A stretch of DNA of 32,000 nt from an uncultured Erysipelotrichaceae bacterium (lineage in GTDB: Bacteria > Bacillota_I > Bacilli_A > Erysipelotrichales > Erysipelotrichaceae). The position numbers were made by a program, and so were the translations under genes. Positions 16,075 through 31,084 of this stretch are shown piece by piece. The notes below the pieces were generated by a model, which saw nothing but the letters and a program-made list of their open reading frames with translations, searched no databases and was not told the origin of the DNA. How positions within the stretch are numbered: the first letter of the stretch is position 1; each line of letters begins with the position of its first letter. The stretch is from positions 180,001 through 212,000 of the forward strand of contig OW818668.1 of assembly GCA_942493105.1 (NCBI GenBank), given 5' to 3'.

Positions 16075-17304
16075 TTAGTCAACTAATAGTGTTAAAGGAT
16101 GTTCAATAAGATAAACTAAATCAGTTAAGAACAAGGCAGCAGGATAACCATCGATTGCTCTATGATCGAAACTGAGGCTCAAGGTCATTTTATTGACTTT
16201 GACTAAATTGTTGTTTGCATCAAATTCAACACGTTGAATCGTTCTGCCTACGCCTAAGATACACACTTCAGGGACATTGATGATCGGATTAAAATCTGTG
16301 ACGGCTGTAGTCCCCAAGGAAGTAATCGTAAAGGTTCCGCCCGTTATATCATCCGGTAACAAAGCATTGTTTTTTGGTTTGGATGTTTGAACTTTGATGG
16401 CTTTCGCTAATTCAACCAAGGATAATGCTTGTGCATTTTTAACATTAGGGACGATAAGTCCGTTGTCTAACGCAACCGCAATCCCAAGATTGACAGAAGG
16501 CAATACATGGATCCCGTCTTCTAGAGCCAAAGCATTCATATTTGGATGCTTCTTTAAGGTTTTAGCAACAAAATAAGCCAGAAGATGTGTTACTGTCAAA
16601 CGAACACCCTGTTCTTTTTCAACTTTATCCAACAATTCAGATCTAAGCTTCAACAAACCATCCACATTGACTTCCGCATTGATCGTAACGGAAGGTACTG
16701 TACTATGACTCTTTGACATTTGATCCGCAATCAATTTACGAATTCCTGTCCATGGGATGATTTTCTCTACGCCTGGTTCAACATAAGTCGATTTTGTGGA
16801 TGATGGGTTAAAATGCAACACATCCTTAAGATGAACTCTATGTAAACCTGGGGTAGATTGGAAAACAGTTTCTATACTGATGCCTTTTTCACGGGCAGCT
16901 TTACGGGCTGCAGGTGTAGCTCTTACTCCAAATCCATCGCTTGGTAAGGCTTGAGCTGAAATCGAGGTAACAGTTTGAGTTGGAGTTTGTGTCGCAACTT
17001 TTGTTTCCACAACAGGTTTCACAGGTGTATCAATTTTTGCAAGTGTTGGAGTCTCAACTTTTTCGCCGGCTTGACCAATGTGGGCAATGACTGAGTTTAC
17101 GGGAACGACTTGTCCAACTTCAATATATCGACCCAAAAGGATTCCAGCATCATAGGCTTCAACTTCAATCGCGATCTTATCGGTCATGACTTCAAAAAGA
17201 ACTTCACCGACTTTGATGGGATCGCCTACTTTTTTAAACCATTCTGTAACATGCCCTTTATCCATCGTTGAGGATAATTTGGGCATCAATACTTCTTTAG
17301 CCAT
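16075..17304 (-). CDS. dihydrolipoamide acyltransferase, E2 component
   Basis: N-terminal lipoyl domain (EVMTDKIAIEVEA, lipoyl-Lys), peripheral subunit-binding domain (RATPAARKAAREKGI) and a catalytic domain ending SFDHRAIDG. AAGGAGG RBS. Confidence 0.93.
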   Translation of the reverse strand: MAKEVLMPKLSSTMDKGHVTEWFKKVGDPIKVGEVLFEVMTDKIAIEVEAYDAGILLGRYIEVGQVVPVNSVIAHIGQAGEKVETPTLAKIDTPVKPVVETKVATQTPTQTVTSISAQALPSDGFGVRATPAARKAAREKGISIETVFQSTPGLHRVHLKDVLHFNPSSTKSTYVEPGVEKIIPWTGIRKLIADQMSKSHSTVPSVTINAEVNVDGLLKLRSELLDKVEKEQGVRLTVTHLLAYFVAKTLKKHPNMNALALEDGIHVLPSVNLGIAVALDNGLIVPNVKNAQALSLVELAKAIKVQTSKPKNNALLPDDITGGTFTITSLGTTAVTDFNPIINVPEVCILGVGRTIQRVEFDANNNLVKVNKMTLSLSFDHRAIDGYPAALFLTDLVYLIEHPLTLLVD

Positions 17305-17316
17305 AAATTGTCCTCC

Positions 17317-18300
17317 TTATTTCGCTGCCATGATTTTGCGGCAGGCTTCTACGATATCGTTGACTTGAGGAACAGCCAATTTTTCAAGATTGGGTTCATA
17401 GGGAATCGGTGTTTCTGCACCGGCTAAACGTACGATTGGATGATCTAAATAGTCAAAGGATTCTTCCTCTGAAATGACAGCGGCTAATTCTGATGAGAAA
17501 CCACTGCGTTTGACGGCTTCAGTTACAACTAAAGCACGACCTGTCTTCTTAACTGAGTCGACGATGGTTTTCTTATCGAGGGGAACCAAGGTTCTTGGAT
17601 CGACGATTTCAATATCAATGCCTTCTTTAGCTAAGATTTCAGCAGCTTCTAGAGCTTTGTGTACCATATAGGATGTCGCGATGACAGAAATATCTTTGCC
17701 TGCACGTTTGATATCGGCAACGCCGATTGGGATAAAGTACTTACCTTCTGGAACATCCCCTTTGGTTCTGTAGCAAAGTTTATGTTCATAAAACATGACA
17801 GGGTTATTGTTGGCGATGGCACTGTGCAATAAACCTTTCGCATCATAAGCCGTGGATGGTTGAATGACGATCAAGCCAGGAATATGGGCTGTCCAGTTTT
17901 CTAAAGATTGGGAATGTTGTGCAGCTGCACCAGTCCCTGATCCACCAGGTGTTCTCATGACCAAAGGAATCGTCACATTGCCGCCATACATATAGTGTAT
18001 CTTCGCAGCTTGATTGACCATTTGATCCAAAGCGATCGTTATAAAATCTGAAAATTGAAGTTCAAAGACAGGACGCATTCCTGTGATTGCTGATCCTACT
18101 GCAGCACCAGCGATGGCACTTTCAGATATGGGAGTTACTCTGATCCGCTCTGGTCCAAATTCTTCAATCATGCCTCTGGTAACGCCAAATGCTCCACCAT
18201 ATACCCCAATATCTTCACCCATGATAAAGACTCTGTCGTCTTCACGCATGGCTTCGCTAAGGGCTTCTCTTATGGCTTCTGTGTATGTTATTTCTCTCAT
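17317..18300 (-). CDS. 2-oxoacid/acetoin-type dehydrogenase E1 beta subunit
   Basis: [14 protein letters not shown]...GEDIG.YGG.F..T.G....FG.ER...TPISE and GAAAQHSQS motifs of transketolase-like E1 beta. Start moved to the ATG at 18300. The AAGGAG there overlaps the E1 alpha stop. Confidence 0.92.
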
Positions 18301-18310
18301 GGTTGGCTCC

Positions 18311-19300
18311 TTAATCCGCGTAAACGTCGACAAACAATTGATCAGCTGTTGGCTTTTCACCAGCTTCTGCGAAAGCAACGGCTGCTTCAATGGCTTCAGC
18401 GGCTTTGGCTTGAATATCATCCGCTTGGGCATCGGTTAAGAGTCCAGCTTCAATCAACTGTTTTCTGAAGTTAGCGATGGGATCGCGTTCTGATCTCCAC
18501 ATTTCTTCTTCTTCACGTGTTCTATATTTCTTAGCGTCGGATTTGGAATGTCCTTTCCAACGATAAGTCTTGGCTTCAATCAAAGTAGGACCTTCACCTT
18601 TTCGTGCACGTTCTACCGCATCATAAGTTGCATTGATGACTTCAATGAGGTTGTTTCCATCAATGGTAATGCTTGGAATTCCATAAGAAACCCCACGAAT
18701 CGAAAGATCTTTGACGTTGACCATTTCTTTGATGGATCCGCTCATTCCATACTGATTATTTTCAATAAAGAAAATAACCGGAAGTTTCCATATGGAAGCC
18801 ATATTGAGGGATTCATGGAAACTGCCTTCATTGGTTGATCCATCTCCCGCATGACACAAACAAACTTGATCTGTTTTCTTCATTTTAGCAGTCAAAGCAG
18901 CTCCAACCGCAATCGGATATCCTCCACCAACGACACCATTAGCACCAAGGTTACCGGTTTCGATTTCCGCTATATGCATGGATCCGCCTTTGCCTTTATT
19001 GGTTCCAGAAGTCTTCCCAAAAAGCTCAGCCATCATTTTATTGATGTCTGTTCCTTTGGCGATGGTTTGACCATGTCCGCGATGGGTGGCTGCCATCCAG
19101 TCGCTTTTTCTTAAGACAGCACCTGATCCAACAGCTGCTGCTTCTTCACCGACACATAAGTGGGTCGTCCCGTGAATCATGCCTTTGGCGAAAAAGTAAT
19201 CTACTTTTTCTTCAAATTGGCGAATGATCCACATCTTACGGAAGGCTTCAATGAGAGCCGCATCATCAAGATGGGCTTTGTTTGGGATTCTTTCTGACAT
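18311..19300 (-). CDS. TPP-dependent 2-oxoacid/acetoin-type dehydrogenase E1 alpha subunit
   Basis: [34 protein letters not shown] and the TPP motif GDGSTNEG...ENNQYG. From memory it is closest to AcoA/PdhA-type E1 alpha. Substrate not assignable. Confidence 0.9.
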
Positions 19301-19311
19301 AAGTGCTCCTT

Positions 19312-20697
19312 TTAAATGTGTATGGGATAACCGAGACCGGCTTCCGTATTATCCATGATGGCTTCTGAGACAGATGGATGCGGGAAGATGGTCAAGGCGA
19401 TGTCTTCTAAGGTAAGACCAGTTTCAATAGCCAAAGTGATCACAGAGATGATTTCACTGGCATTGACACCTGCGATCTGAGCTCCTAAGATCAGCTTTGT
19501 GTTTTCTTCAGAAATGATTCTTACAAAGCCTTCGGTCTTAGATGCAGCGATGGCTCTTGAATTCGCAGCCAATGGGAAATCTGTCGCAATGGCTTTGATG
19601 TTTAAAGCCAAACATTCTTCCAGAGATTTACCAGTGGTGGCAATTTCAGGGGTCGTATAACAGACTGCAGGCATGGCTTTATAATCAATTTCAACTTTAT
19701 GACCAGAGATGACTTCTGCGACGATTTTAGCTTCATAGGAAGCTTTATGAGCCAACGCAAGACCTAAGGTTATGTCTCCGATCGCATAGACTTTAGGATT
19801 GGTGGTTTTGGATTGTTTATTGACTTTAACGAAGCCTTTAGGATCGAGTTCGATACCAGAGACATTGATGTTGAGCTGATCGGTATTGGGACGTCTACCA
19901 ACGGATACCAATACAACTTCAGATTCAACGATCGTTTCAACATCACCTTTTTTATACGTCAACGCAACACGATCACTCTCTTCTTTTGAAGAAAGCACCA
20001 AGGCATCGGTCAGGATGGTTACTCCTAGTTTCGTTAAATTACGTTTAACCAAATCAGAAAGCTTGGTGTTAAAACCAGGCAAAATACCAGGTGTTGCTTC
20101 AATCAAAGTGACTTTGGTCCCAAAGGCAGCAAAAGCTTCAGCCAATTCGCAACCGATATAGCCTGCCCCAATGACACTTAAGGTTTGAGGTAAAGTGGGA
20201 ATATTTAAGATTCCTGTTGAATCAAGAATACGTTTTGAGAAAGGGGCTGCTTTGATTTCAATGGGACGACTGCCTACGGCTAAGATCGCAGTGTTGAAAC
20301 TATATTCCTCGGATTTACCATCGTTGGTTACAGTAATTGAATTCTTCGAACTGAATTTTGCTTCGCCAAATAAAACTGTGACTTTGTTTTTCTTTAGCAG
20401 TTGAGTTACACCAGATCTTAACTTCTGTACAACTTGGGTGTTTTTCCACACTTGTGTCTTTTCAAAGTCCAAGGTCGCGGTCGCATTGATCCCAAATTTA
20501 GAGGCATGCAACAGCTCTTGATAAGTATGGCCTGCCTGCAGTAAAGCTTTGGATGGAACACACCCTACGTTAAGGCATGTGCCTCCTATGACATTTCTTT
20601 CGATGAGGGTGACTTGTTGACCAAGTTGTGCTGCTCGGATGGCTGCAACATAACCTCCAGGACCAGATCCAATAATGACAGTATCTAATGCGTTCAT
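19312..20697 (-). CDS. lpd: dihydrolipoyl dehydrogenase, E3 component
   Basis: FAD fold GSGPGGY, redox disulfide GGTCLNVGCVPSK, NAD fold GAGYIGCE, C-terminal HPSVSE His-Glu dyad. Start moved to the ATG at 20697 behind GGAGAGGT. Confidence 0.93.
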   Translation of the reverse strand: MNALDTVIIGSGPGGYVAAIRAAQLGQQVTLIERNVIGGTCLNVGCVPSKALLQAGHTYQELLHASKFGINATATLDFEKTQVWKNTQVVQKLRSGVTQLLKKNKVTVLFGEAKFSSKNSITVTNDGKSEEYSFNTAILAVGSRPIEIKAAPFSKRILDSTGILNIPTLPQTLSVIGAGYIGCELAEAFAAFGTKVTLIEATPGILPGFNTKLSDLVKRNLTKLGVTILTDALVLSSKEESDRVALTYKKGDVETIVESEVVLVSVGRRPNTDQLNINVSGIELDPKGFVKVNKQSKTTNPKVYAIGDITLGLALAHKASYEAKIVAEVISGHKVEIDYKAMPAVCYTTPEIATTGKSLEECLALNIKAIATDFPLAANSRAIAASKTEGFVRIISEENTKLILGAQIAGVNASEIISVITLAIETGLTLEDIALTIFPHPSVSEAIMDNTEAGLGYPIHI

Positions 20698-20993
20698 TTT
20701 TACCTCTCCAATGTTTCTTTTCGAGACATGAATATGATTTGTCTTCCAAATCAAAATACTTCTTGAGTATTACTTCCAAGAGTTTATACGGGTGAAACAA
20801 CACATTGAATTCACGATTTCATCTAATAAGCAAAGAAGATAAAACGTCCAATGGATGCCTCTTAACGATTTCATCTTGAATGATTTGAATCAAGTCGTGA
20901 TGGTCCATTCAATTCGCTGCGGACATCGTCATTATTCCCGCAAACTCTACACACTAATCTTACAAGGTTATTGAACCATTTGGCTATAAGTGA

Positions 20994-21025
20994 AGTCAAA
21001 CTGCTTTCCACATTAATGTGGTAAA
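20994..21025 (-). promoter_or_regulatory. operator palindrome plus -35 element upstream of the E3-E1-E2 operon
   Basis: Minus strand reads TTTACCACA-TTAA-TGTGGAAA-GCAGT-TTGACT, followed after 18 nt by TTCAAT. The same module with the same spacing occurs at 29332..29363. Confidence 0.6.
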
Positions 21026-21062: not shown

Positions 21063-21704
21063 CTATTTCTTCTGTCCATAATTGTTGAATACGGCTACCG
21101 CATCAGCAATTTGATCATCAGACAGTTGCGCTATATGAGGCGACATAGATCGTGCAATCGTGTATGTTTTCGCAGCTTCTTCTAGATAAACACAGGCATA
21201 AAGTGCTTGACTTATGTCTTTTCCTACAGCGATGACCCCATGGTTTTTTAAAATGATGGCGAGTTTATCATCAAGATACTCAACAGCTTGTATACCCATA
21301 TCTAAGCTGGCAGCAGATGCATATTTGGTAACCAAAACATTACCTCTTGTTGCATTGGCCAAGGTGGTCAAACAACAAGGCAAATGATCTTCAACCAAAC
21401 CAACTGCAGTAGCATAAGGTTGATGGGTATGGATGATGGCGTTGATGTCTGGACGATGTTTAAAGATATAGAGTAAAGCTTGTGTATCGACAGACACTCG
21501 TCTTGTGCCTTCTATGACCTTGCCTTCAATATCTAACACGATGATGTCATCCTCAACCATGATTTCATACATCATGCCAGAAGGCGTGACCAATATCTTA
21601 TCTTCAAATCGGACACTGACGTTACCGCCTGATAGTGAGATCAGGTGATAACGATCCATTAAAATGCCCGTCTTGATGATTTGACGTTTGAGTTCTTCTA
21701 ACAT
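21063..21704 (-). CDS. class II aldolase/adducin-family protein (FucA/AraD/OtnC-like)
   Basis: The 213-aa protein is collinear with FucA (GNVSVR, TP.G..YE, RPD.NA.IHTH, NHG.IA.G). It carries the AraD/UlaF-like metal ligand context SVDT instead of the FucA SSE. Start moved to the ATG at 21704, overlapping the cyclase stop (TAATG). Confidence 0.8.
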   Translation of the reverse strand: MLEELKRQIIKTGILMDRYHLISLSGGNVSVRFEDKILVTPSGMMYEIMVEDDIIVLDIEGKVIEGTRRVSVDTQALLYIFKHRPDINAIIHTHQPYATAVGLVEDHLPCCLTTLANATRGNVLVTKYASAASLDMGIQAVEYLDDKLAIILKNHGVIAVGKDISQALYACVYLEEAAKTYTIARSMSPHIAQLSDDQIADAVAVFNNYGQKK

Positions 21705-22513
21705 TACACAATGGCCAATGGGACAACCGGGGTTCCTGTTGCACCTACAAATTTCATAGGATAACACATCAAAGTAAACACATAAACCTTATCTTTAGCC
21801 AATTCATCCAACTTCATATTTTCAATCATCGTGATCCCATCTACCACAAATAAATAGATATGAGCCCAATGAGTCGATCCGGTTTTTGGATCGAGTTCTT
21901 CAGGGATATCCCAAGAGAGCTGATCGACTCCAAATACGATGGGTTTGAATGTTCTGACCCAAGCACTGGCTTCACCATTAATACCTGCATATTTTAGAAA
22001 TTCTTTATTGTCATGCCACAAAGTATCATAGCCTGTTCGAACGATGATCGCATCACCTTCTTGGATGGTCACATTTTGAGCTTTCGCTGTTTCAATTAAA
22101 TCTTGAGCTGTGATGGCATAACGATTGGGCAGAACTGAAACACCTTTATAGGCAGCCACATCCAACATAACAGCACGTGCCATGATGGGCTCTAGTTCTT
22201 CTGCACCGTGGCTTGTGAAGCCTTTAGGGGTCTCAATAAGGTTGGTGACTTTAACATCACCATGCATGGTCAAATCAAGCGCCTGATGACATAGTGCATC
22301 CATGTGTGTCCCAGAATGATCATTCATGATGAAGAAACCATTAGCAGTAGAACGGGGACCTTTTGAATCAGGGAAGTATCCAGCCACATGACCTCTTGAG
22401 ATAAAGTAGTCATAATGAGGACGATGATGAGGATAAACCGGCATACCAATATAACGAGGCTGTTCAAGATTATAAATTTTTCTCTTCTTCAATTCATTTA
22501 GAAATAGTTCCAT
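21704..22513 (-). CDS. putative-cyclase family metal-dependent hydrolase (kynurenine formamidase-like fold)
   Basis: HSGTHMDALCH matches the HxGTHxDxPxH zinc motif of the putative-cyclase family (Pfam PF04199 from memory). AAGGAG RBS. Confidence 0.75.
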   Translation of the reverse strand: MELFLNELKKRKIYNLEQPRYIGMPVYPHHRPHYDYFISRGHVAGYFPDSKGPRSTANGFFIMNDHSGTHMDALCHQALDLTMHGDVKVTNLIETPKGFTSHGAEELEPIMARAVMLDVAAYKGVSVLPNRYAITAQDLIETAKAQNVTIQEGDAIIVRTGYDTLWHDNKEFLKYAGINGEASAWVRTFKPIVFGVDQLSWDIPEELDPKTGSTHWAHIYLFVVDGITMIENMKLDELAKDKVYVFTLMCYPMKFVGATGTPVVPLAIV

Positions 22514-22531
22514 ATTTTTCTCCTTGTTTGA

Positions 22532-23179
22532 TCAATCTTTAAACGATGCATCTATTCTTTGTTTGAAAGCACGGGCGACCGCAACTGGATCTTTGGCTTC
22601 ATACAATGAACGCCCAACGATAAACGAGAATATTTCTAGACCACCAAACATATCAATATCTTCAGGTCTTAGTCCACCTGTCACACTGACATGAAAACCA
22701 ATCTCTATCAAGGCTTTGATTTTATCGATATCAGTTTGAGTCCATGCTTGTGATGCATCTCTGGAGTGATGATAAATGATATGTGTCACCCCTGTTTTAA
22801 ACCATGCTTTGGCTAAATCAAAATCCCATCTTCCATATAACTCGATTTGAATGTTTTGATTGTTCTTCTGTGCCAACTTACCTGCAATTTCCATAGTAGC
22901 CAAATCAGCCGCAGCAATGACAGTGATCAAGTTGGCTCCAGCATCAAACAACATCCCACCGATCGTATTGACTGCATCAGCAATTTTAAAATCAGCCACC
23001 AACATTTTATGAGGATATGTTTCTCTTAGTCTGCGAGGTGCTGATGCCCCTTCTGCAGCTAAAAGAACTGTTCCTGCTTCAATGATATCTACTTCATCGA
23101 CAAGATTATTTAAACTTAAGATATTCTGTGCTTCTTGTATACTGACGACATCTAACGCAATCTGCAATTTCGGTTTCAT
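22532..23179 (-). CDS. ulaD: 3-keto-L-gulonate-6-phosphate decarboxylase-like (OMP decarboxylase suprafamily)
   Basis: Collinear with E. coli UlaD: LQIALD, VDIIEAGT, YPHK.LVADFKIADA, IQIELYG.W, IYHHSRDA, VTGGL..EDI, FIVGRS. Closer to UlaD than to hexulose-phosphate synthase by my recollection. AAAGGAG RBS. Confidence 0.8.
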   Translation of the reverse strand: MKPKLQIALDVVSIQEAQNILSLNNLVDEVDIIEAGTVLLAAEGASAPRRLRETYPHKMLVADFKIADAVNTIGGMLFDAGANLITVIAAADLATMEIAGKLAQKNNQNIQIELYGRWDFDLAKAWFKTGVTHIIYHHSRDASQAWTQTDIDKIKALIEIGFHVSVTGGLRPEDIDMFGGLEIFSFIVGRSLYEAKDPVAVARAFKQRIDASFKD

Positions 23180-23513
23180 TTATTCTCCTTTTTTTGATGG
23201 TCATCTCTGCCAAATTAAATCAAATGTAATATCTCTTATAAAATCTTCTCATCTTTCTTAAATTCATCGGTTGATTCTAGTGAACATTTTTTAAAATCAC
23301 TTACTTATTTAAAAAAATCTCGCCTTTCAACCAACAGTTTTCAGTTATGCTCATATAAGCTAATTTTTAATGAACATTTGTGGTAAAAATGCCTTAAATT
23401 ATTCACTAAGTTGTTCCTTATTTCTCAATTGTATCATACCTAAACCTGTTGAGATACTCATGTAATGTCTAGTCATAAAGTGTTCATTTAATATGGTCCA
23501 TGTTCATAAGTTG

Positions 23514-24315: not shown

Positions 24316-24345
24316 AATAAAAAGGCTGTCTCGGAAGACAGCCTT
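24316..24345 (-). terminator. rho-independent terminator ending the PTS operon
   Basis: Minus strand reads AAGGCTGTCT-TCCG-AGACAGCCTT followed by TTTTATT. Confidence 0.88.
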
Positions 24346-24348
24346 AGC

Positions 24349-24843
24349 TTATTTTGTTTTGATGAATGAGCGTTGTTTAAAGTTTTTCATCATCGGATGC
24401 TTGAGTTCAACCAAACTTTCAAGGAAAGCCTGAAGCTCTAAACCTTGACCAAACTGTTCGATTTGAAGCCAATATCTGCCTTTGGTTAAGCCTGCACCAT
24501 TGATCCGAACATAGATGCTTTTTGAGAAAGCAGTCTTGCGGATATTGATGCGTTGGATCTCTTCAAAGGTGTAATGATGATGCCTTCCAAAACAAGAGAA
24601 TTCAATGGATTGATCTGTGGTCTTGACTTTTTCAGGATGAGACAAAGACAGGTAATGATCCAGAAAGATGATCAAGGCCAAAACGGCGATGGGCACACTA
24701 TAGGATGTTGCCTTATTTGTCAAAACTTCAAAGATCATGATCAGAAAGACCAAAGCAGACAGAATCGTAGGGACATAGATCCCAAACATCGATTTCTGAG
24801 TGGTGTATTGATAGACTTTGTTCAAGTTGTCCTCTTTCAGCAT
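24349..24843 (-). CDS. small membrane protein: TM hairpin plus about 95-aa cytoplasmic domain, unknown function
   Basis: Two hydrophobic helices (IYVPTILSALVFLIMIF, VPIAVLALIIFL) then a soluble beta-rich domain. The architecture resembles bacterial PH-domain (YdbS-like) proteins, but that is only an architectural guess. Weak RBS; ATG at 24843. Confidence 0.55.
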   Translation of the reverse strand: MLKEDNLNKVYQYTTQKSMFGIYVPTILSALVFLIMIFEVLTNKATSYSVPIAVLALIIFLDHYLSLSHPEKVKTTDQSIEFSCFGRHHHYTFEEIQRINIRKTAFSKSIYVRINGAGLTKGRYWLQIEQFGQGLELQAFLESLVELKHPMMKNFKQRSFIKTK

Positions 24844-24858
24844 CAATCACATATTGGA

Positions 24859-26208
24859 TTAAGCTTGTTTAGCAATACGTTTGAAGTTGATGAAAGCCAT
24901 GACGCCAGTGATGGCAGTCAAGATGCCTAAACCAATCCATCTGAAGTTCATGAGTTGAACGAAAGCCCAGCTCAATGGTGAAGCTCCATCAGCAATACTT
25001 GAAATCAGGTCAGCACCTACAGGCAAGGTGAAGTTAGCAGCAACAGCAGCTTCGGTCAATAACGGAGCAATACCAGTTGCGATCCACAAGCCAGTAACAA
25101 CGATGAAGATACCAACAACTAAAGTTCTGAATAAATCGCCTTTAGTAATAGGAACAACCAAGACAAACAAGAAAGGCAATACCGCTAAGTCAGCAAACGG
25201 CAAGAACTGATTGCCTGGCAAAATAGCAGCGATCAAGACGGATAACGGAACAAGGATCAAAGAAACAGCCAAGGTTGTCGGATGACCGATACCTACAGCA
25301 GCATCCAAACCGATATAGATCTTGGTGTTGGATTTGAAATGTTTTTCAACGAATTCAGAAGCAGCATCAGAAATAGGAATCAAACCTTCCATGAGTAATC
25401 CAGCCATCTTAGGAATAAGAACCAAAGCAGCACCCATGGTGATACCCAAGGATAAGAAGCCTTTCAAATCGTAACCAGCTAAGACACCGATAATGGCACC
25501 TAAGACTGTTCCGACCAAGATCGGTTCGCCAAAGATTCCAAATTTCTTCTGAACAGCAACAGCATCCATATTGATTTTGTTGATGCCTGGGATATAATCC
25601 AAGATTTTATTGATGACTAAAGCCACAGGAACAAACGCTACTGATAATCCGTGAGGAATAGAAACGCCTGGTAAACCACAGTATTCTTCAACGCCTTTAG
25701 CAGTCCAGTCAGCCAAGATCAATGTCATGGCAGCTTGAATTGCAGCTGTTGCTAAACCAAAGACCAAGTCATTGGTAGCAAAATAAACCAAAGAACCTGT
25801 GAATGCATAATGCCAGAAGTTCCAAACGTCAATATTGACTGTTTGAGTCGTTTTGGTCAAGATCATAACAAAGTTGACAGCTAATGCAACAGGAATAACC
25901 AAAGCCCCTACATTGGTCGCAAACGCGATGGCTGCAGCTGCAGGCCACCCAACATCAATAACAGTTAAGCTTAAGCCATAATTCGTAACCATTTGTTGAA
26001 CGGCTGGGCCTAAGTTTCCACCCAACATCCCAATAACCAAATTCAAACCAATGAAACCAACGCCAACCGTTAGACCGGCTCTAATGGCCTTGCCTGGTTT
26101 TGCGCCCATGATCAAACCGATAAGGGTAATAACGATCGGCATCATGACTGATGAACCTAAGCCTACGACAAAGTTTATGCCATCCATAATGACTTTAAAA
26201 ATGTCCAC
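24859..26208 (-). CDS. PTS EIIC, L-ascorbate (UlaA/SgaT) family
   Basis: A 449-aa polytopic membrane protein whose size and glycine-rich hydrophobic pattern fit SgaT/UlaA permeases. It sits immediately after the cognate IIA and IIB genes. Confidence 0.85.
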   Translation of the reverse strand: MDIFKVIMDGINFVVGLGSSVMMPIVITLIGLIMGAKPGKAIRAGLTVGVGFIGLNLVIGMLGGNLGPAVQQMVTNYGLSLTVIDVGWPAAAAIAFATNVGALVIPVALAVNFVMILTKTTQTVNIDVWNFWHYAFTGSLVYFATNDLVFGLATAAIQAAMTLILADWTAKGVEEYCGLPGVSIPHGLSVAFVPVALVINKILDYIPGINKINMDAVAVQKKFGIFGEPILVGTVLGAIIGVLAGYDLKGFLSLGITMGAALVLIPKMAGLLMEGLIPISDAASEFVEKHFKSNTKIYIGLDAAVGIGHPTTLAVSLILVPLSVLIAAILPGNQFLPFADLAVLPFLFVLVVPITKGDLFRTLVVGIFIVVTGLWIATGIAPLLTEAAVAANFTLPVGADLISSIADGASPLSWAFVQLMNFRWIGLGILTAITGVMAFINFKRIAKQA

Positions 26209-26237
26209 AATTTTCTCCTTTTTTGTGTTTGTGTTGT

Positions 26238-26531
26238 CTACTTAAGACCTAATGACTCGAGTATATCTTGTAAAACTGGTTCAGTACCCCGACCTATAAG
26301 AAAAGCCACACCCATAATTACTTTGACCGGCATCGGTTTGCTGTTATGCGCCGTTGTGACGATCAAATCATATTTTGAAGCCTTAGACTCCATCTCTGCA
26401 ACTGTACAGGTTGATACTTCTACCAAATCACCAAAGCCTCTCTCTTTAAAGATATTTTCTAGCTTTTTAGCGACGGCAACGGATGTAGCAACGCCTGTAC
26501 CACAAGCAACCAGTACTCTTTTCTTAATCAT
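26238..26531 (-). CDS. PTS EIIB, ascorbate/lactose-type (UlaB-like)
   Basis: MIKKRVLVACGTGVATS carries the active-site Cys in a P-loop-like context. 97 aa. Start moved to the ATG at 26531 behind AAAGGAGGGTG. Confidence 0.88.
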   Translation of the reverse strand: MIKKRVLVACGTGVATSVAVAKKLENIFKERGFGDLVEVSTCTVAEMESKASKYDLIVTTAHNSKPMPVKVIMGVAFLIGRGTEPVLQDILESLGLK

Positions 26532-26550
26532 GCACCCTCCTTTCTTTTCA

Positions 26551-27012
26551 TCAAGCAATTTGAGCACTCATCAGCGCATAGAGCGCCTCAGGAGTGGCTG
26601 CTTCCTTAATTTGGGTCAGCAAGCTTTCGTTTTGGATCATATCCATCAAACTTTGCAAGACTGACATATGCGAATGCGATTCTTTTAAGGCCAACATAAA
26701 CATGACTTCAACGTCGATCAGTTCATCATGATTGCCCATCATACGAAACTGAACCGGATTTTTTAAAGTTGCGACAGCCAAGACCGACGTGTTGACGTAG
26801 CAAGGATCCGCATGTGGAATCGCTACCCCTCGGCCAAATCCTGGCAAACCTGTTGAGAATTCTGCTTCTCGATCAAGAATCGCCTGAATGAAAGTATCCT
26901 TTACATAGCCTTCTGCTTTTAACTTTTCAGCTAAGATCACTAAGGCTTCATCCGCGTTTTGAGCTTCAATATTCAATAAGATAACTTTTGAATTGAATAG
27001 AGATGCGCTCAT
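26551..27012 (-). CDS. PTS EIIA, mannitol/fructose/Ntr-type (UlaC-like)
   Basis: 153 aa with GVAIPHADP phospho-His motif. ATGA overlap with the upstream mini-gene. Confidence 0.88.
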   Translation of the reverse strand: MSASLFNSKVILLNIEAQNADEALVILAEKLKAEGYVKDTFIQAILDREAEFSTGLPGFGRGVAIPHADPCYVNTSVLAVATLKNPVQFRMMGNHDELIDVEVMFMLALKESHSHMSVLQSLMDMIQNESLLTQIKEAATPEALYALMSAQIA

Positions 27013-27206
27013 TTGGATGCTTCTTCCGCAACGATCAGTGTTGCCTTAAATTCACTGGGTGTAAAAGATATGGATTGGTTTTCCGCAAGTCTGCGTAAAC
27101 CAGTTCCTGTAATGTCTGCCATTTTAAACGTATATTCTTTGTGGTCTTCGCCGACAATCACGCCAGCACCTTTAACCAAACTATAGAATTTCACGATGCC
27201 CTTCAT
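27009..27206 (-). CDS. 65-aa cold-shock-domain-like OB-fold protein with degenerate RNP motifs
   Basis: Collinear with CspB (GIVKFY..VKGAGVIV......EYTFKMADI.G.G...L.ENQSISF). RNP1 KGFGFI is KGAGVI and RNP2 VFVHF is YTFKM. Good RBS (GAGAGG). The stop overlaps the EIIA start (ATGA). Confidence 0.65.
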   Translation of the reverse strand: MKGIVKFYSLVKGAGVIVGEDHKEYTFKMADITGTGLRRLAENQSISFTPSEFKATLIVAEEASK

Positions 27207-27260: not shown

Positions 27261-29213
27261 TTAACTGCTTAATAAAACTTCACTGATGGCTTGTGCCACT
27301 TCTTCTTTATCCTTCATTGAACAGATTCGATTCCATAGGGCTAAGTCATCACTGTGATCGGCCAAATGACTGAAGAATGGGATCGTATCAGATGCATCTT
27401 CTTTGGTTGAGACTACGTTGAGGATCATTTTGACCTCAACATCTTTTTCCCAAAGGACGGGATGTGTCAGGATGACCACTTGGATACAACTTCTTAAGAC
27501 ATAAGCGAAGTCACCATGAGGAATCGCAATCATCGATGAGATGACAGTAGGTCCCAAAGCTTCTCTCTCAAGCATGCTTTCCAGATAACCTTCAGTAACG
27601 AGTTTACGTTTACTTAAAGTCTGATTTAAGAAATATAAGACATCTTCTTTGGTTTTCAGATCGACATTTAAGTGGATATCGTCTTTGGTGATCGCAGCTT
27701 TAGTAGGTGCAAATGTTTTCTTGCCTTCTACGATTTCTCGGATGGCATTCATATCGTACTGTGGTAGTAAAGGATTGATGATGATCGTTTTGATCTTCGA
27801 TTGAATGGCCACCGTTGAGATGATCAGATCGATCTTTGATTCATCGTAACTATCAACGTCCATCGTAGAGGTCACATCGACGATCTCAAGGTTATTGAAA
27901 GCGCGTTTTAGTTTCGCCACAATGAGTTGAGATGTTCCTAATCCGCTGGCACACATAACTAAGGTCCGGATCGGTTTGATATTGCGTTCTCTGGCTGCTG
28001 CAAAGTGTAAGACCAGATAAGCAATTTCATTGGGTGGCATTTCAATGTGGAACATAGATTTAAACAAAGATACATGGTTGGCTATGGCTTGATAGATCGT
28101 AGGATAGGAGAATTTAATCTCTTCAAACATTGGATTCTCTAGAGATAGCCCATAAAGCAGGCGGTTAATGGTGGGTTTAAGATGTAGGATCAAACTATTG
28201 AACAGTTGCGTATCTGTTTCTAGAAACAGATTGAGTTCCATTTGAACATTCTGGATGAATTTTAAGATGAGATCTTCTAGGACAGGTGTATCTGATGAGA
28301 GCTTGAAGTTAAAGACATTAAGACCTTCTTTAATACGTTTGGCTCCCATAAAATGAAGCAAGATATAATAGGTTTCTGTTTCAGATAAAACAACATTGAA
28401 GACAGAGTTGATGCGTTGAGCGGTTTCTAAGGCAATGGCGTATTCTTCTTGATGGTCTAGGGCTTGAATCAATTCGTCGGTCAAACGAATGTTGTTGCCT
28501 TGTTTTGTACGTCTTATCGCAATTGCGATGTGGATGATCAAGTTGATCCTGGCTTCCATAGAGAAGGAATAGCCTAACTTGATTTCTGATTCCGCTACGA
28601 TCTCTTCGACTTTCTTATAATCCAGTTGAAGTGACTCTTCAAAACGATTGACGAAGGAATGAGAACGGCGATCTGTGTTGTCTTGGTTGTAGTAAACAAG
28701 ATTCTTGTTTTCTTCAAAGGGGACAAGCTTAGCCATTGCTTTACGCTTATTGCTTTCTTCCCCAACAATCACAGTGCCTTCACCTTTTAAATATTCAATG
28801 ACTAAGTTGAAGTCTGCTAACATCGCATTGAGTTCACTGATGTCTTTGGTGATCGTAGAACGGCTGACATAATAGTCTAAACCCAGTTCTTTGATCATAA
28901 GCGGTCGGTTTTCCGCAAACAATTTCGATAAGATCGAACGTTGTCTTTCTTGAGGGGTTAAATAACTGGTATCTCTGCGAGTTTTAAAGGTAGATAGCAA
29001 TTGTTGTTTATCACTGGGATCCCCTTCAATGGTGATACCTTGACCCGGTTTTTTGATCATGACCAAATGATGATCTTGAAGGATGGGTTCTATCAGATCT
29101 AATTCATTGCGAACTGTCTTGGGTGAACTGTTGACTGCTTTGGCGATCAAGTCAACACTGACCAGATTCTTTTCACTCAGGATGAATTTAACGATATCTT
29201 CTTTTCTGTTCAT
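27261..29213 (-). CDS. PRD-domain transcriptional regulator of the MtlR/LicR/ManR class (HTH-HTH-PRD-PRD-EIIB-like-EIIA-like)
   Basis: N-terminal winged-HTH pair, two PRD-like helical regions with conserved His (LILHL, LVLHFAAA), an EIIB(Gat)-like LVMCASGLGTSQ and an EIIA-like AIPHGDF. Start moved to the ATG at 29213 behind GAGGAG. Confidence 0.88.
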   Translation of the reverse strand: MNRKEDIVKFILSEKNLVSVDLIAKAVNSSPKTVRNELDLIEPILQDHHLVMIKKPGQGITIEGDPSDKQQLLSTFKTRRDTSYLTPQERQRSILSKLFAENRPLMIKELGLDYYVSRSTITKDISELNAMLADFNLVIEYLKGEGTVIVGEESNKRKAMAKLVPFEENKNLVYYNQDNTDRRSHSFVNRFEESLQLDYKKVEEIVAESEIKLGYSFSMEARINLIIHIAIAIRRTKQGNNIRLTDELIQALDHQEEYAIALETAQRINSVFNVVLSETETYYILLHFMGAKRIKEGLNVFNFKLSSDTPVLEDLILKFIQNVQMELNLFLETDTQLFNSLILHLKPTINRLLYGLSLENPMFEEIKFSYPTIYQAIANHVSLFKSMFHIEMPPNEIAYLVLHFAAARERNIKPIRTLVMCASGLGTSQLIVAKLKRAFNNLEIVDVTSTMDVDSYDESKIDLIISTVAIQSKIKTIIINPLLPQYDMNAIREIVEGKKTFAPTKAAITKDDIHLNVDLKTKEDVLYFLNQTLSKRKLVTEGYLESMLEREALGPTVISSMIAIPHGDFAYVLRSCIQVVILTHPVLWEKDVEVKMILNVVSTKEDASDTIPFFSHLADHSDDLALWNRICSMKDKEEVAQAISEVLLSS

Positions 29214-29331
29214 AGGCTCCTCTTGTTTGTTAAACTCAAGCAATCTTTGCCAATGCACACGATGCGTTATTTCGTGCAATTCTACCTCACAATCATTCTA
29301 TAATGAACATTTGTGATTAGATGGTGTGACA

Positions 29332-29363
29332 AGTCAAGTTTATTTCCACATCATTGTGGTAAA
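29332..29363 (-). promoter_or_regulatory. operator palindrome plus -35 element upstream of the PRD regulator/PTS operon
   Basis: Minus strand reads TTTACCACA-ATGA-TGTGGAAA-TAAAC-TTGACT. It is identical in both half-sites, the 5-bp gap length and the TTGACT to the module at 20994..21025. Confidence 0.6.
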
Positions 29364-29480
29364 TATCGAACTTTGTTTCGATAATTCACTTCAATATAAT
29401 AATCGATTTCATCAATTTATGACACAGAAATACCTTTTCAACTTAGGTGCATAAAATTCACAATTGTTCAATCACCCTAT

Positions 29481-29508
29481 TGATTTGATTTTTTATCGTG
29501 CTATGATG
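29481..29508 (+). promoter_or_regulatory. sigma-A promoter with extended -10 driving the riboswitch leader
   Basis: TTGATT, then 16 nt ending in TGc, then TATGAT. It ends about 20 nt upstream of the aptamer. Confidence 0.6.
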
Positions 29509-29692: not shown

Positions 29693-31084
29693 ATGCGAAA
29701 GCATCACATGAAGAAAATTATGTTGGGAAGTCTAGGAGCCATTTTAATCTTATCTTTATTGTTTCAACCTGTCATGGCGATGACTGGCAACGACTTTGAC
29801 TTGATGACCACGATTACATCATTATTTACGAGAGTCAATTCACAGGATGAAAAGATTGCTGTTCTTGAAAACAAGATTGAAGAACTAAAGGATCTTTTGG
29901 ATGCTAAAAAGAATCCTCCAGAAATCATCCCCAAGGAAGAGCCTAGGGATACAGTCATTGAAACTGATCCACCTAAAGAAGAAGAAAAGGTTGAGGAAGA
30001 AAAACCAGTCGATCCAAAACCTGATCCAGAGTTAACGTTGAAGTTAACCATTAAAACAGGTGATGCTGGCTTGAAACTGACGTGGACAAAGGAAACTGAT
30101 GAAAATCTTCGTGGAGTCAAGATCGTTATTTCAGAGTCTAATCCTAAACCATCTTATCCTGATGATGGCTATCTAGCTTGGATTACTGACCCAAATGTTA
30201 CCTCACTATTGATTGATGGTTCAGAAACCTATAATGGTGGGGATATCGATGGGTCACTTAAGAGCGATACTACTTATTACTTTACAGTTACTTATGTCTA
30301 TGAAGATAAAAAAATAACGACCTCTACTGTCACCTACAAGACCCCCTCCTTCCTCACTCAAGATGACGAAGAATTGCCTGTTGATCCTGAGTCATTGGCA
30401 CTAACCATCATAACTTTAGATGATTCTTTGCAGTTGAGTTGGACACCTGAACCAAGTAAATCTCTTTTAGGGTATAAGGTTGTCATCTCTGAATCCAATC
30501 CTAACCCTTCTTATCCTAATGATGGTTATTTAAAATGGATCACTGATCGTGCTCAGACCTCACTCACTATTGATAACGCAGAATCCTATAATGGCGGAGA
30601 TATCAATGGGACACTTAAAGGGGATACGATCTATTACTTTACCATTACCTATGTCTATGCGGATGAAAAAGTAACGACCTCAACTGTAACCTTTAAGACA
30701 CCATCTTCCTTCTCTCAAGATGAAGAAGAACAGCCAATAGATCCTGAATCCTTGGAGTTGATTTATAAAATTTGGGATAATACTGTTCAATTGAGTTGGA
30801 CACCTGAACCCAGTAAATCTCTGTTAGGGTATAAAGTTGTCATATCTGAATCCAATCCTAACCCTTCTTATCCAGACGATGGTTATCTTAGATGGATCAC
30901 CAACTGGGAAGAAAATTCAATAATTATCGATAACTCCGAATCCTACAATGGAGGCGACATCAACAGTTACCTCAAACCTAATACCAATTACTATCTAGCC
31001 ATCACCTATATTTATCAAGACCACAAGGTTACTACTGACCCAATTGTGGTGCTAACGCCCGCAACTTTACATACAAACCGATAG
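29693..31084 (+). CDS. secreted protein: signal peptide, coiled coil, Pro/Glu/Lys linker and three 119-aa repeats
   Basis: Signal peptide ending PVMA, a heptad-like DEKIAVLENKIEELKDLLD, a PEIIPKEEP...EEEKPVDPKPDPE linker, then three copies of L.W........GYKVVISESNP.PSYP.DGYL.WI......ID..E.YNGGDI.G.LK.DT.YYF.ITYVY.D.KVTT. AAAGGAG lies 6 nt before the ATG. No LPXTG or C-terminal anchor seen. Confidence 0.85.
   Translation: MRKHHMKKIMLGSLGAILILSLLFQPVMAMTGNDFDLMTTITSLFTRVNSQDEKIAVLENKIEELKDLLDAKKNPPEIIPKEEPRDTVIETDPPKEEEKVEEEKPVDPKPDPELTLKLTIKTGDAGLKLTWTKETDENLRGVKIVISESNPKPSYPDDGYLAWITDPNVTSLLIDGSETYNGGDIDGSLKSDTTYYFTVTYVYEDKKITTSTVTYKTPSFLTQDDEELPVDPESLALTIITLDDSLQLSWTPEPSKSLLGYKVVISESNPNPSYPNDGYLKWITDRAQTSLTIDNAESYNGGDINGTLKGDTIYYFTITYVYADEKVTTSTVTFKTPSSFSQDEEEQPIDPESLELIYKIWDNTVQLSWTPEPSKSLLGYKVVISESNPNPSYPDDGYLRWITNWEENSIIIDNSESYNGGDINSYLKPNTNYYLAITYIYQDHKVTTDPIVVLTPATLHTNR
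30008..31081 (+). repeat. three tandem 357-nt coding repeats inside the secreted protein gene
   Basis: Units start near 30008, 30380 and 30737. Units 2 and 3 share near-identical DNA over the first 100 nt or so (TTGAGTTGGACACCTGAACC.AGTAAATCTCT.TTAGGGTATAA.GTTGTCAT.TCTGAATCCAATCCTAACCCTTCTTATCC). Confidence 0.85.

Follow-up and report, generated by a model that had tools for sequence, protein, structure and literature searches.

Among the sigma-A-dependent PRD activators of PTS operons are ManR (mannose) and LicR (lichenan) of B. subtilis and UlaR (ascorbate) of S. pneumoniae, whose binding sites are located upstream of the -35 of their own PTS operons or overlap it, and whose activity is under the control of HPr and the cognate EII. 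The operators of these three regulators differ from the CACA-N4-TGTG type that is the subject here, and the closest described systems are those of MtlR. In B. subtilis, the transcription starts of PmtlA and PmtlR have been mapped, and the MtlR operator spans 42 bp, located 7 bp from the -35, with a short palindrome between two conserved flanks of 11 bp; promoter activity was lost when 5 bp within this palindrome were exchanged (Heravi et al. 2011, PMC3217849). According to the primers of that study, the box TTGTCACAGTCATGTGCCAA is followed, after 18 nt, by the -35 TTGTAT and, after a further 17 nt, by the -10 TAACAT, which places 41 nt between palindrome and -10, and MtlR was argued to act close to the -35 in the manner of a class II activator (PMC3217849). 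Binding of MtlR to the MtlR box has been demonstrated by EMSA, with the pseudo-palindrome being essential (PMC10992428), and in E. faecalis scrambling of TTTGGCACAATGGTTTGTGCCAA abolishes MtlR-dependent activation (bioRxiv 10.1101/2022.02.04.479212).

An MtlR-box-like dyad at two sites

The dyad that resembles these boxes (site 1) lies at 29343..29362 on the minus strand of the window, the 32,000-nt stretch of Erysipelotrichaceae DNA that was analysed, within a 479-bp divergent intergenic region. Sequence comparison and genome scans mark it as a probable operator core; it reads TTACCACA-ATGA-TGTGGAAA, or TTACCACAATGATGTGGAAA when written without breaks, and the order on the minus strand is GTTCGATAT-TTACCACA-ATGA-TGTGGAAA-TAAAC-TTGACT-TGTCAC, with the dyad reaching 29363 when an extra T is counted. 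CCACA-N4-TGTGG is a perfect inverted repeat, the 8-nt arms are symmetric at 7 of 8 positions (TTACCACA versus TTTCCACA), and TTGACT follows after the 5 nt TAAAC, exactly as the initial annotation had described. The B. subtilis box TTGnCACA-N4-TGTGnCAA and TTACCACA-N4-TGTGGAAA are identical at 14 of 20 positions with equal spacing. Site 1 has the form of an MtlR box, namely, a CACA-N4-TGTG core with TTR/YAA outer bases, the outer bases being TTA..AAA here and TTG..CAA in B. subtilis. The MtlR site of E. faecalis (mtlA2) is likewise a GCACA...TGTGC palindrome upstream of a PTS operon promoter, needed there for activation by the PRD regulator, but its spacer is 6 nt (TTTGGCACA-ATGGTT-TGTGCCAA) rather than 4 nt and it belongs to a mannitol regulon. 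The match to the box, taken together with the boxes proven for MtlR in B. subtilis and E. faecalis, leads us to read the dyad as an MtlR-box-type operator core.

A second copy (site 2) is found at 21005..21024 on the minus strand as TTACCACA-TTAA-TGTGGAAA; over 21025..21005 (TTTACCACA-TTAA-TGTGGAAA) it is identical to site 1 at all 17 specified bases, and it is followed, after the same 5-nt gap, by its own TTGACT (20994..20999, minus strand). The pattern TTTACCACA-N4-TGTGGAAA with up to 3 mismatches gave four matches in the window (the two sites on both strands) compared with 0.16 expected from the shuffled window, and a count of four was reached by none of 100 shuffles. Across the whole genome (2,032,407 bp), ACCACA-N4-TGTGGAAA occurs exactly at two places only; many scattered copies of the 21-mer, which had been named at the outset as evidence against an operator, are absent, with two exact sites in 2.03 Mb. 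A position weight matrix derived from sites of the same genus scored the two sites at 34.5 and 31.1 bits, while the next genomic match reached 17.8 bits and shuffled genomes 16-22 bits, and its scan of the whole genome yielded no third site. Nor did a 2-mismatch pattern search of the whole genome point to a wider regulon (18 matches versus 27 for the reversed control).

Genes downstream of the two dyads

The gene downstream of site 1 (27261..29213, minus strand, with the ATG at 29213) encodes a PRD-containing activator of 650 aa, in which domain searches identified HTH_11, Mga (residues 82-162), PRD twice, an EIIB-like PTS_IIB (418-493) and an EIIA-like PTS_EIIA_2 (508-645); further matches were to LicT and AtxA for the PRD part and to EIIA-Mtl for the EIIA part. 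This order of HTH, Mga-like HTH, two PRD, EIIB-like and EIIA-like domains fits the MtlR/LicR/ManR class of PRD activators and is that of B. subtilis MtlR (HTH, Mga-like, PRD1, PRD2, EIIB-Gat-like, EIIA-Mtl-like). A CAT RNA-binding domain would mark an antiterminator and a sigma-54 AAA+ domain the LevR class; the domain searches found neither in this regulator. The recognition helix of the first HTH is SPKTVRNE (residues 30-37). The phosphorylatable motifs comprise H228 and H287 in PRD1, H344 and H403 in PRD2, C421 (VMCASGLGTS) and H566 (IAIPHG), of which we take H344, H403, C421 and H566 to be equivalent to H342, H399, C419 and H599 of MtlR. Since these motifs are kept, HPr-dependent activation and EII-dependent inactivation would be expected.

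The regulator gene is followed by putatively cotranscribed genes (24349..27206, minus strand) for a 65-aa cold-shock-like ORF, EIIA, EIIB, a galactitol-family EIIC and a 165-aa membrane protein, after which there is a terminator-like hairpin at 24322-24345. The order of the PTS operon is syntenic in the related genomes G001, G006 and G014. The EIIC assignment is based on PF03611 and on a match to TIGR00827 whose 494 bits fall under the 542-bit cutoff of that family, and the gene annotation of the cluster contains no mtlD. With a galactitol-family EIIC and no mtlD, the operator is MtlR-like, yet the system is not the mannitol system itself. The 65-aa ORF (27009-27206, minus strand) matches the cold-shock domain weakly, at an E value of 5e-4, which does not reach the Pfam cutoff; in G001 (77%) and G006 (62%) it is conserved in the same place, between the genes for the regulator and EIIA, which argues for a real, constant member of the operon.

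Downstream of site 2, the predicted target operon (16075..20697, minus strand) carries the genes for lpd (E3), E1 alpha, E1 beta and E2 of a 2-oxoacid dehydrogenase complex. As with B. subtilis MtlR, one operator precedes the regulator gene and one precedes the target operon; the two systems differ in that the PTS here is of the galactitol family, mtlD is lacking and the predicted second target is the dehydrogenase operon. The stretch of about 260 nt between site 2 and lpd (20698-20956, minus strand) is the remnant of a SorC/DeoR-type regulator gene, which accounts for the long leader before lpd: only residues ~24-78 can be aligned (44% identity), the gene is interrupted by an internal stop and a frame break, and the genome contains no other copy of the SorC-type gene. 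At the corresponding position, an intact SorC-type gene (325 aa) is found in G001 and G006. In relatives with the intact gene, the TTGACC after the dyad belongs to a second palindrome, TTGACC-N8-GGTCAA, of which it forms the left arm and which is seen in the class-2 sites (defined below) L054 (1521-1540), L050, L044, L046 and L058; this palindrome may be the operator of the SorC-type repressor. In the present genome its right arm has decayed (TTGACT-N9-GCCAAA, 20980-20999), alongside the loss of the SorC-type gene.

The region between the operons of site 1 and site 2 contains an LplA-like gene and a cassette with genes of UlaD-like, cyclase and class II aldolase type; UlaR of S. pneumoniae is presumably linked to a UlaD-type pathway like that of the cassette at 21063-23179. 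Upstream of the UlaD-like gene (23368-23386, minus strand), TTACCACA is fused directly to AATGTTCATTA, that is, the left dyad arm to the 11-nt sequence located immediately before TAGAAT at site 1. The stretch reads like a copy of the site-1 promoter minus the part between the two CACA tetramers, and it lacks both the right arm and a -10 at the usual offset. The 377-bp spacer upstream of the same gene also carries TGAACA/TGTTCA four times.

Conservation and promoter layout

Among 40 related genomes, orthologues of the regulator (47-95% identity) were found in 6 genomes of the same genus, and the dyad is present in each. Where the regulator gene is complete (six loci, counting that of this genome), the distance from the dyad to the start codon downstream of it is 97-147 nt, and the partial orthologue in G019 has the dyad as well. 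In five orthologous loci the dyad core is invariant save for one spacer base. Of the 20 other genomes in the genus, 12 contain one or two copies of the motif each; counts for the reversed control were almost always zero. Class 1 sites are upstream of the regulator orthologue, and the distal operator flank GTTCGATAT (29363..29371, minus strand) is invariant across five loci of this class. Class 2 sites are upstream of the lpd operon; in G001, G004, G005, G006 and G019, the 325-aa SorC/DeoR-type gene stands first. Class 3 sites (L040, L043 and L051 in G010, G011 and G013; L025 in G020; L035 in G014) lie in the divergent region between the gene for a paralogous, 27-28%-identical PRD regulator and a lactose/cellobiose-type EIIA-like gene, the identity of the latter being read by eye from the N-terminus only. 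Sites before both the regulator gene and the target operon are also present in G001, G006, G007, G014 and G019, and the class-2 site of G006 is on another contig than the regulator, which implies action in trans, as a regulon operator should show. A related-locus search of the genome contigs returned one locus only, from a 95% relative, and did not enlarge this footprint. In G014 (L062, C1, 1022000-1040000; 47%-identical regulator), one dyad is found before the regulator-EIIA genes and another before EIIB-EIIC-aldolase; after each comes AAGTGAAAC in place of N5-TTGACY, and each locus has a cre-like TGTAAGCAATTACA just past the -10-like box.

The initial annotation had taken TTGACT (29337..29332, minus strand) for a -35 with a weak -10, ACAAAT (29314..29309), 17 nt beyond. 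This was not borne out when 12 class-1 and class-2 sites were anchored on the dyad. Column conservation, calculated over 11 of them with the class-2 site of G006 omitted (its spacer is 1 nt longer), was 0.95 for the 20 nt of the dyad, 0.62 for the N5, 0.92 for TTGACY, 0.56 for the 31 nt after TTGACY and 0.91 for a hexamer TA(A/G)(A/G)AT that comes next. The offset of this hexamer from the dyad is +42 in 11 of the 12 sites and +43 in one, so that the spacing is kept despite the diverged spacer sequence, and a conserved or -10-like hexamer 17±1 nt after TTGACY is absent across the 12 related sites. At 31 nt from the sole conserved -10 candidate, TTGACY is too far away to be its -35. The candidate -10 of site 1 is TAGAAT (29295..29300, minus strand), 42 nt past the dyad, and sites of classes 1 and 2 alike keep a hexamer at this offset; the candidate at site 2 is TAAGAT (20957..20962, minus strand), also 42 nt past the dyad. 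Counting 17 nt upstream of TAGAAT gives CATCTA (29318..29323, minus strand) as the likely -35 position, a poor one. The layout originally proposed is not supported in this form: dependence on an activator is still suggested by the combination of a good candidate -10 with a poor -35, which would make transcription rely on the bound activator, but the dyad would be centred near -64 and not beside the -35.

This geometry resembles that of B. subtilis PmtlA, in which 41 nt separate palindrome and -10, compared with 42 nt (to TAGAAT) here; the -35 position, on the other hand, is poorer than TTGTAT, and no cre overlaps the -10. TAAAC together with TTGACT (29332..29342, minus strand) is exactly 11 nt long, like the proximal flank of the B. 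subtilis operator, and its conservation and the 11-bp flanks of the MtlR operator (PMC3217849) suggest that it is part of an extended operator; it differs from the B. subtilis flank in that it contains the -35-like TTGACY. The most economical reading of these data is that TTGACT is probably part of the operator rather than the promoter -35, an operator role of the flank being suggested by the B. subtilis precedent and the function of TTGACY by its position. The orthologous loci of G014 and G016 (47-53% identity) keep the dyad without TTGACY, which makes the flank lineage-specific; they combine the dyad with a -10-like box at 40-41 nt. In the class-3 sites, the -10 box follows at 31 nt, which is one helical turn closer, and TTGAAT/C could plausibly serve as the -35; their core CTACCACAATAATGTGGAAA is 31 nt from TAGAAT, 11 bp closer than at site 1, and the regulator shares the SPKTVRNE helix. 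A link between TTGACY and the second (Mga) HTH was also considered; G016 shares the SRSTITKD helix without having TTGACY, and no simple link exists.

Two other assignments of the promoter elements have to be weighed against this one. TTGACT as a true -35, with ACAAAT as a weak -10 and the dyad abutting the -35, centred near -50, would draw on the 5/6 match of TTGACY to the -35 consensus, on the conservation (0.92) of this hexamer, always 5 nt from the dyad, across 12 sites that represent two promoter classes and on the class II-like action near the -35 described for MtlR by Heravi et al. (PMC3217849). We consider it unlikely, as the hexamers 17±1 nt after TTGACY (ACAAAT, GCATGA, AAATGC, CTTAGC, ATCGAT and GCCCTT) are not -10-like in any class, TA(A/G)(A/G)AT is conserved 31 nt after TTGACY instead, the sites of G014, G016 and class 3 have a dyad and a TAGAAT-type box without TTGACY, and a consensus promoter scan called no promoter with the TTGACT hexamer. 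Somewhat more room is left for the same operator serving a different -10. Class 1 has two tandem TAGAAT hexamers, and transcription could therefore begin 16 nt further downstream: the second, invariant TAGAAT (29279..29284, minus strand), which opens a conserved leader block, could be the active -10, or both could be used, and the dyad centre would then be near -80 for the downstream start. The invariance of this hexamer and its surroundings (GGTAGAATTGCACG) in all five class-1 loci favours such an arrangement, which is possible but the less probable choice, given that class-2 sites have a single -10-like box at +42, the offset of the first TAGAAT, and that the 41-nt geometry of B. subtilis fits the first TAGAAT (PMC3217849).

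The leader (29214..29278, minus strand) contains a conserved block TTGCACGAAA..ATCGTGTGCATYGGCAAA and the ribosome-binding site GAGGAG (29222..29217). Read from the second TAGAAT onward, the block GGTAGAATTGCACGAAA..ATCGTGTGCATYGGCAAA (29214-29284, minus strand) is nearly invariant in five species, in which nearby DNA has diverged, and GCAUYGGC within it could pair with GCCYAUGAA around the start codon. The block could represent a second promoter, a protein site or a means of translational control. An RNA-level reading of the dyad, as well as a RAT/antiterminator reading of the leader, was rejected: an Rfam E-value scan of 29180-29420 gave no match, and RNAalifold on five leaders revealed no compensatory pairs. 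On the divergent side, a c-di-GMP-I riboswitch (RF01051, 29526-29605, plus strand, 70.1 bits) was the only match of the Rfam gathering scan; it precedes the gene for a secreted protein with three fn3-like repeats (29693-31084), and a TG-extended promoter-like site is located at 29480-29507.

The binding protein and the predicted regulon

The initial annotation attributed the dyad to the regulator encoded at 27261-29213 and proposed autoregulation. Both proposals are very probably correct in view of the two sites, the footprint among orthologues, the helix type and the MtlR-box likeness. The regulator orthologues and the class-3 paralogues share the helix SxKT(V/I)RNE. Thirteen regulators carry this helix, and for 10 of them CCAYA-N4-TRTGG is present no more than 150 nt upstream of the start codon; in an 11th (G014b) the dyad is just after the gene. 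Among 10 regulators whose helix is different or was not recognised (SKRTLFRE, SLRTAHTD, TVRTLRND, SNRTILRD), a convincing dyad is lacking throughout, and the single pattern match, in G022, is weak. In G020, where the helix is STKTIRNE, the symmetric variant CCATA-AGGT-TATGG occurs in the class-3 frame, and this change in both arms is what a selected dimer site would show. Since the genomes are kin, the association of helix and dyad rests on ~2-3 independent lineages.

Other binders were considered as well, together with the absence of any regulatory role. A SorC/DeoR-type protein, a global regulator of the CcpA, Rex or Crp/Fnr type or a paralogous PRD regulator could in principle recognise the dyad; the SorC-type gene follows site 2 in G001, G004, G005, G006 and G019, and paralogous PRD regulators of other species adjoin the same core, so the core alone cannot prove which paralogue binds. 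Each of these is nevertheless very improbable in this genome. The SorC-type gene is only a remnant here, without a second copy, and both dyads are still perfect, so that its product was rejected as the binder. The established consensus sequences are TGTGAA-N4-TTCACA for Rex, TGTGA-N6-TCACA for Crp and TGWAANCGNTNWCA for cre; set against these, CACA-N4-TGTG has its half-sites in the opposite order to those of Rex and Crp, and a fit to cre is lacking, so that Rex, Crp/Fnr and CcpA were rejected on half-site orientation and spacing, and the presence of only two sites per genome also speaks against a global regulator. The class-3 paralogue does not occur in this genome, where the sole other match is 24% identical; as the core is common to paralogues in other species, specificity must lie in the flanks or the spacing. 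As for a palindrome that arose by chance or as a hairpin, terminator or repeat element, its perfect stem is indeed only 5 bp, but this reading is effectively refuted by the two identical copies at equal distances from TTGACT and a -10-like box, the conservation of the site while its flanks diverge, the lack of a T-run after the dyad and the lack of further copies in the genome.

Taken together, we assign a probability of roughly 80% to the reading, made from sequence comparison, that the dyad is an MtlR-box-type operator core bound by the adjacent PRD activator, that it forms part of a two-operator regulon and that TAGAAT is the -10, with the dyad centre at about -64. According to this model, an activator dimer most likely binds TTACCACAATGATGTGGAAA through the N-terminal winged HTH with the helix SPKTVRNE, the operator probably covers ~42 bp (the dyad plus 11-bp flanks, the proximal one being TAAAC+TTGACT), and the dimer, bound with its centre at about -64 relative to the start site of a sigma-A promoter, would recruit sigma-A RNA polymerase. 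Site 1 would provide positive autoregulation together with control of the galactitol-family PTS genes, the direction of control being a prediction, and site 2 would couple the lpd-E1-E2 dehydrogenase operon to the same signal. By analogy with MtlR, LicR and ManR, HPr would phosphorylate PRD2 (His344/His403) when a preferred sugar is lacking, and when the substrate is absent the cognate EIIA/EIIB would phosphorylate the EIIB-like Cys421 and the EIIA-like His566, turning the regulator off.

A broader proposal is more tentative. A shared code may exist in which SxKT(V/I)RNE reads CCAYA-N4-TRTGG in at least two paralogous lineages, with specificity provided by the flanks and by helical phasing (42 versus 31 nt to the -10, the latter in a cellobiose-type regulon); TTGACY might be a second contact, made either by the Mga-type HTH or through docking of sigma region 4, and the PTS sensor might directly coactivate the dehydrogenase complex. 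We regard this combination as doubtful at present. To our knowledge, there is no protein-DNA structure for MtlR-class regulators, and the association of helix and dyad, together with the CCATA/TATGG variant, amounts to a small natural data set on how such regulators read DNA.

To conclude, the dyad would be in other respects an ordinary activator site of the known MtlR-class operator type. Its interest lies in a concrete promoter architecture (the dyad, an 11-bp flank and 42 nt to the -10) and in a predicted regulon, comprising two operators, that would tie a galactitol-family PTS to a pyruvate/acetoin-type dehydrogenase complex under an uncharacterised PRD activator of a little-studied, gut-type lineage of Erysipelotrichaceae.
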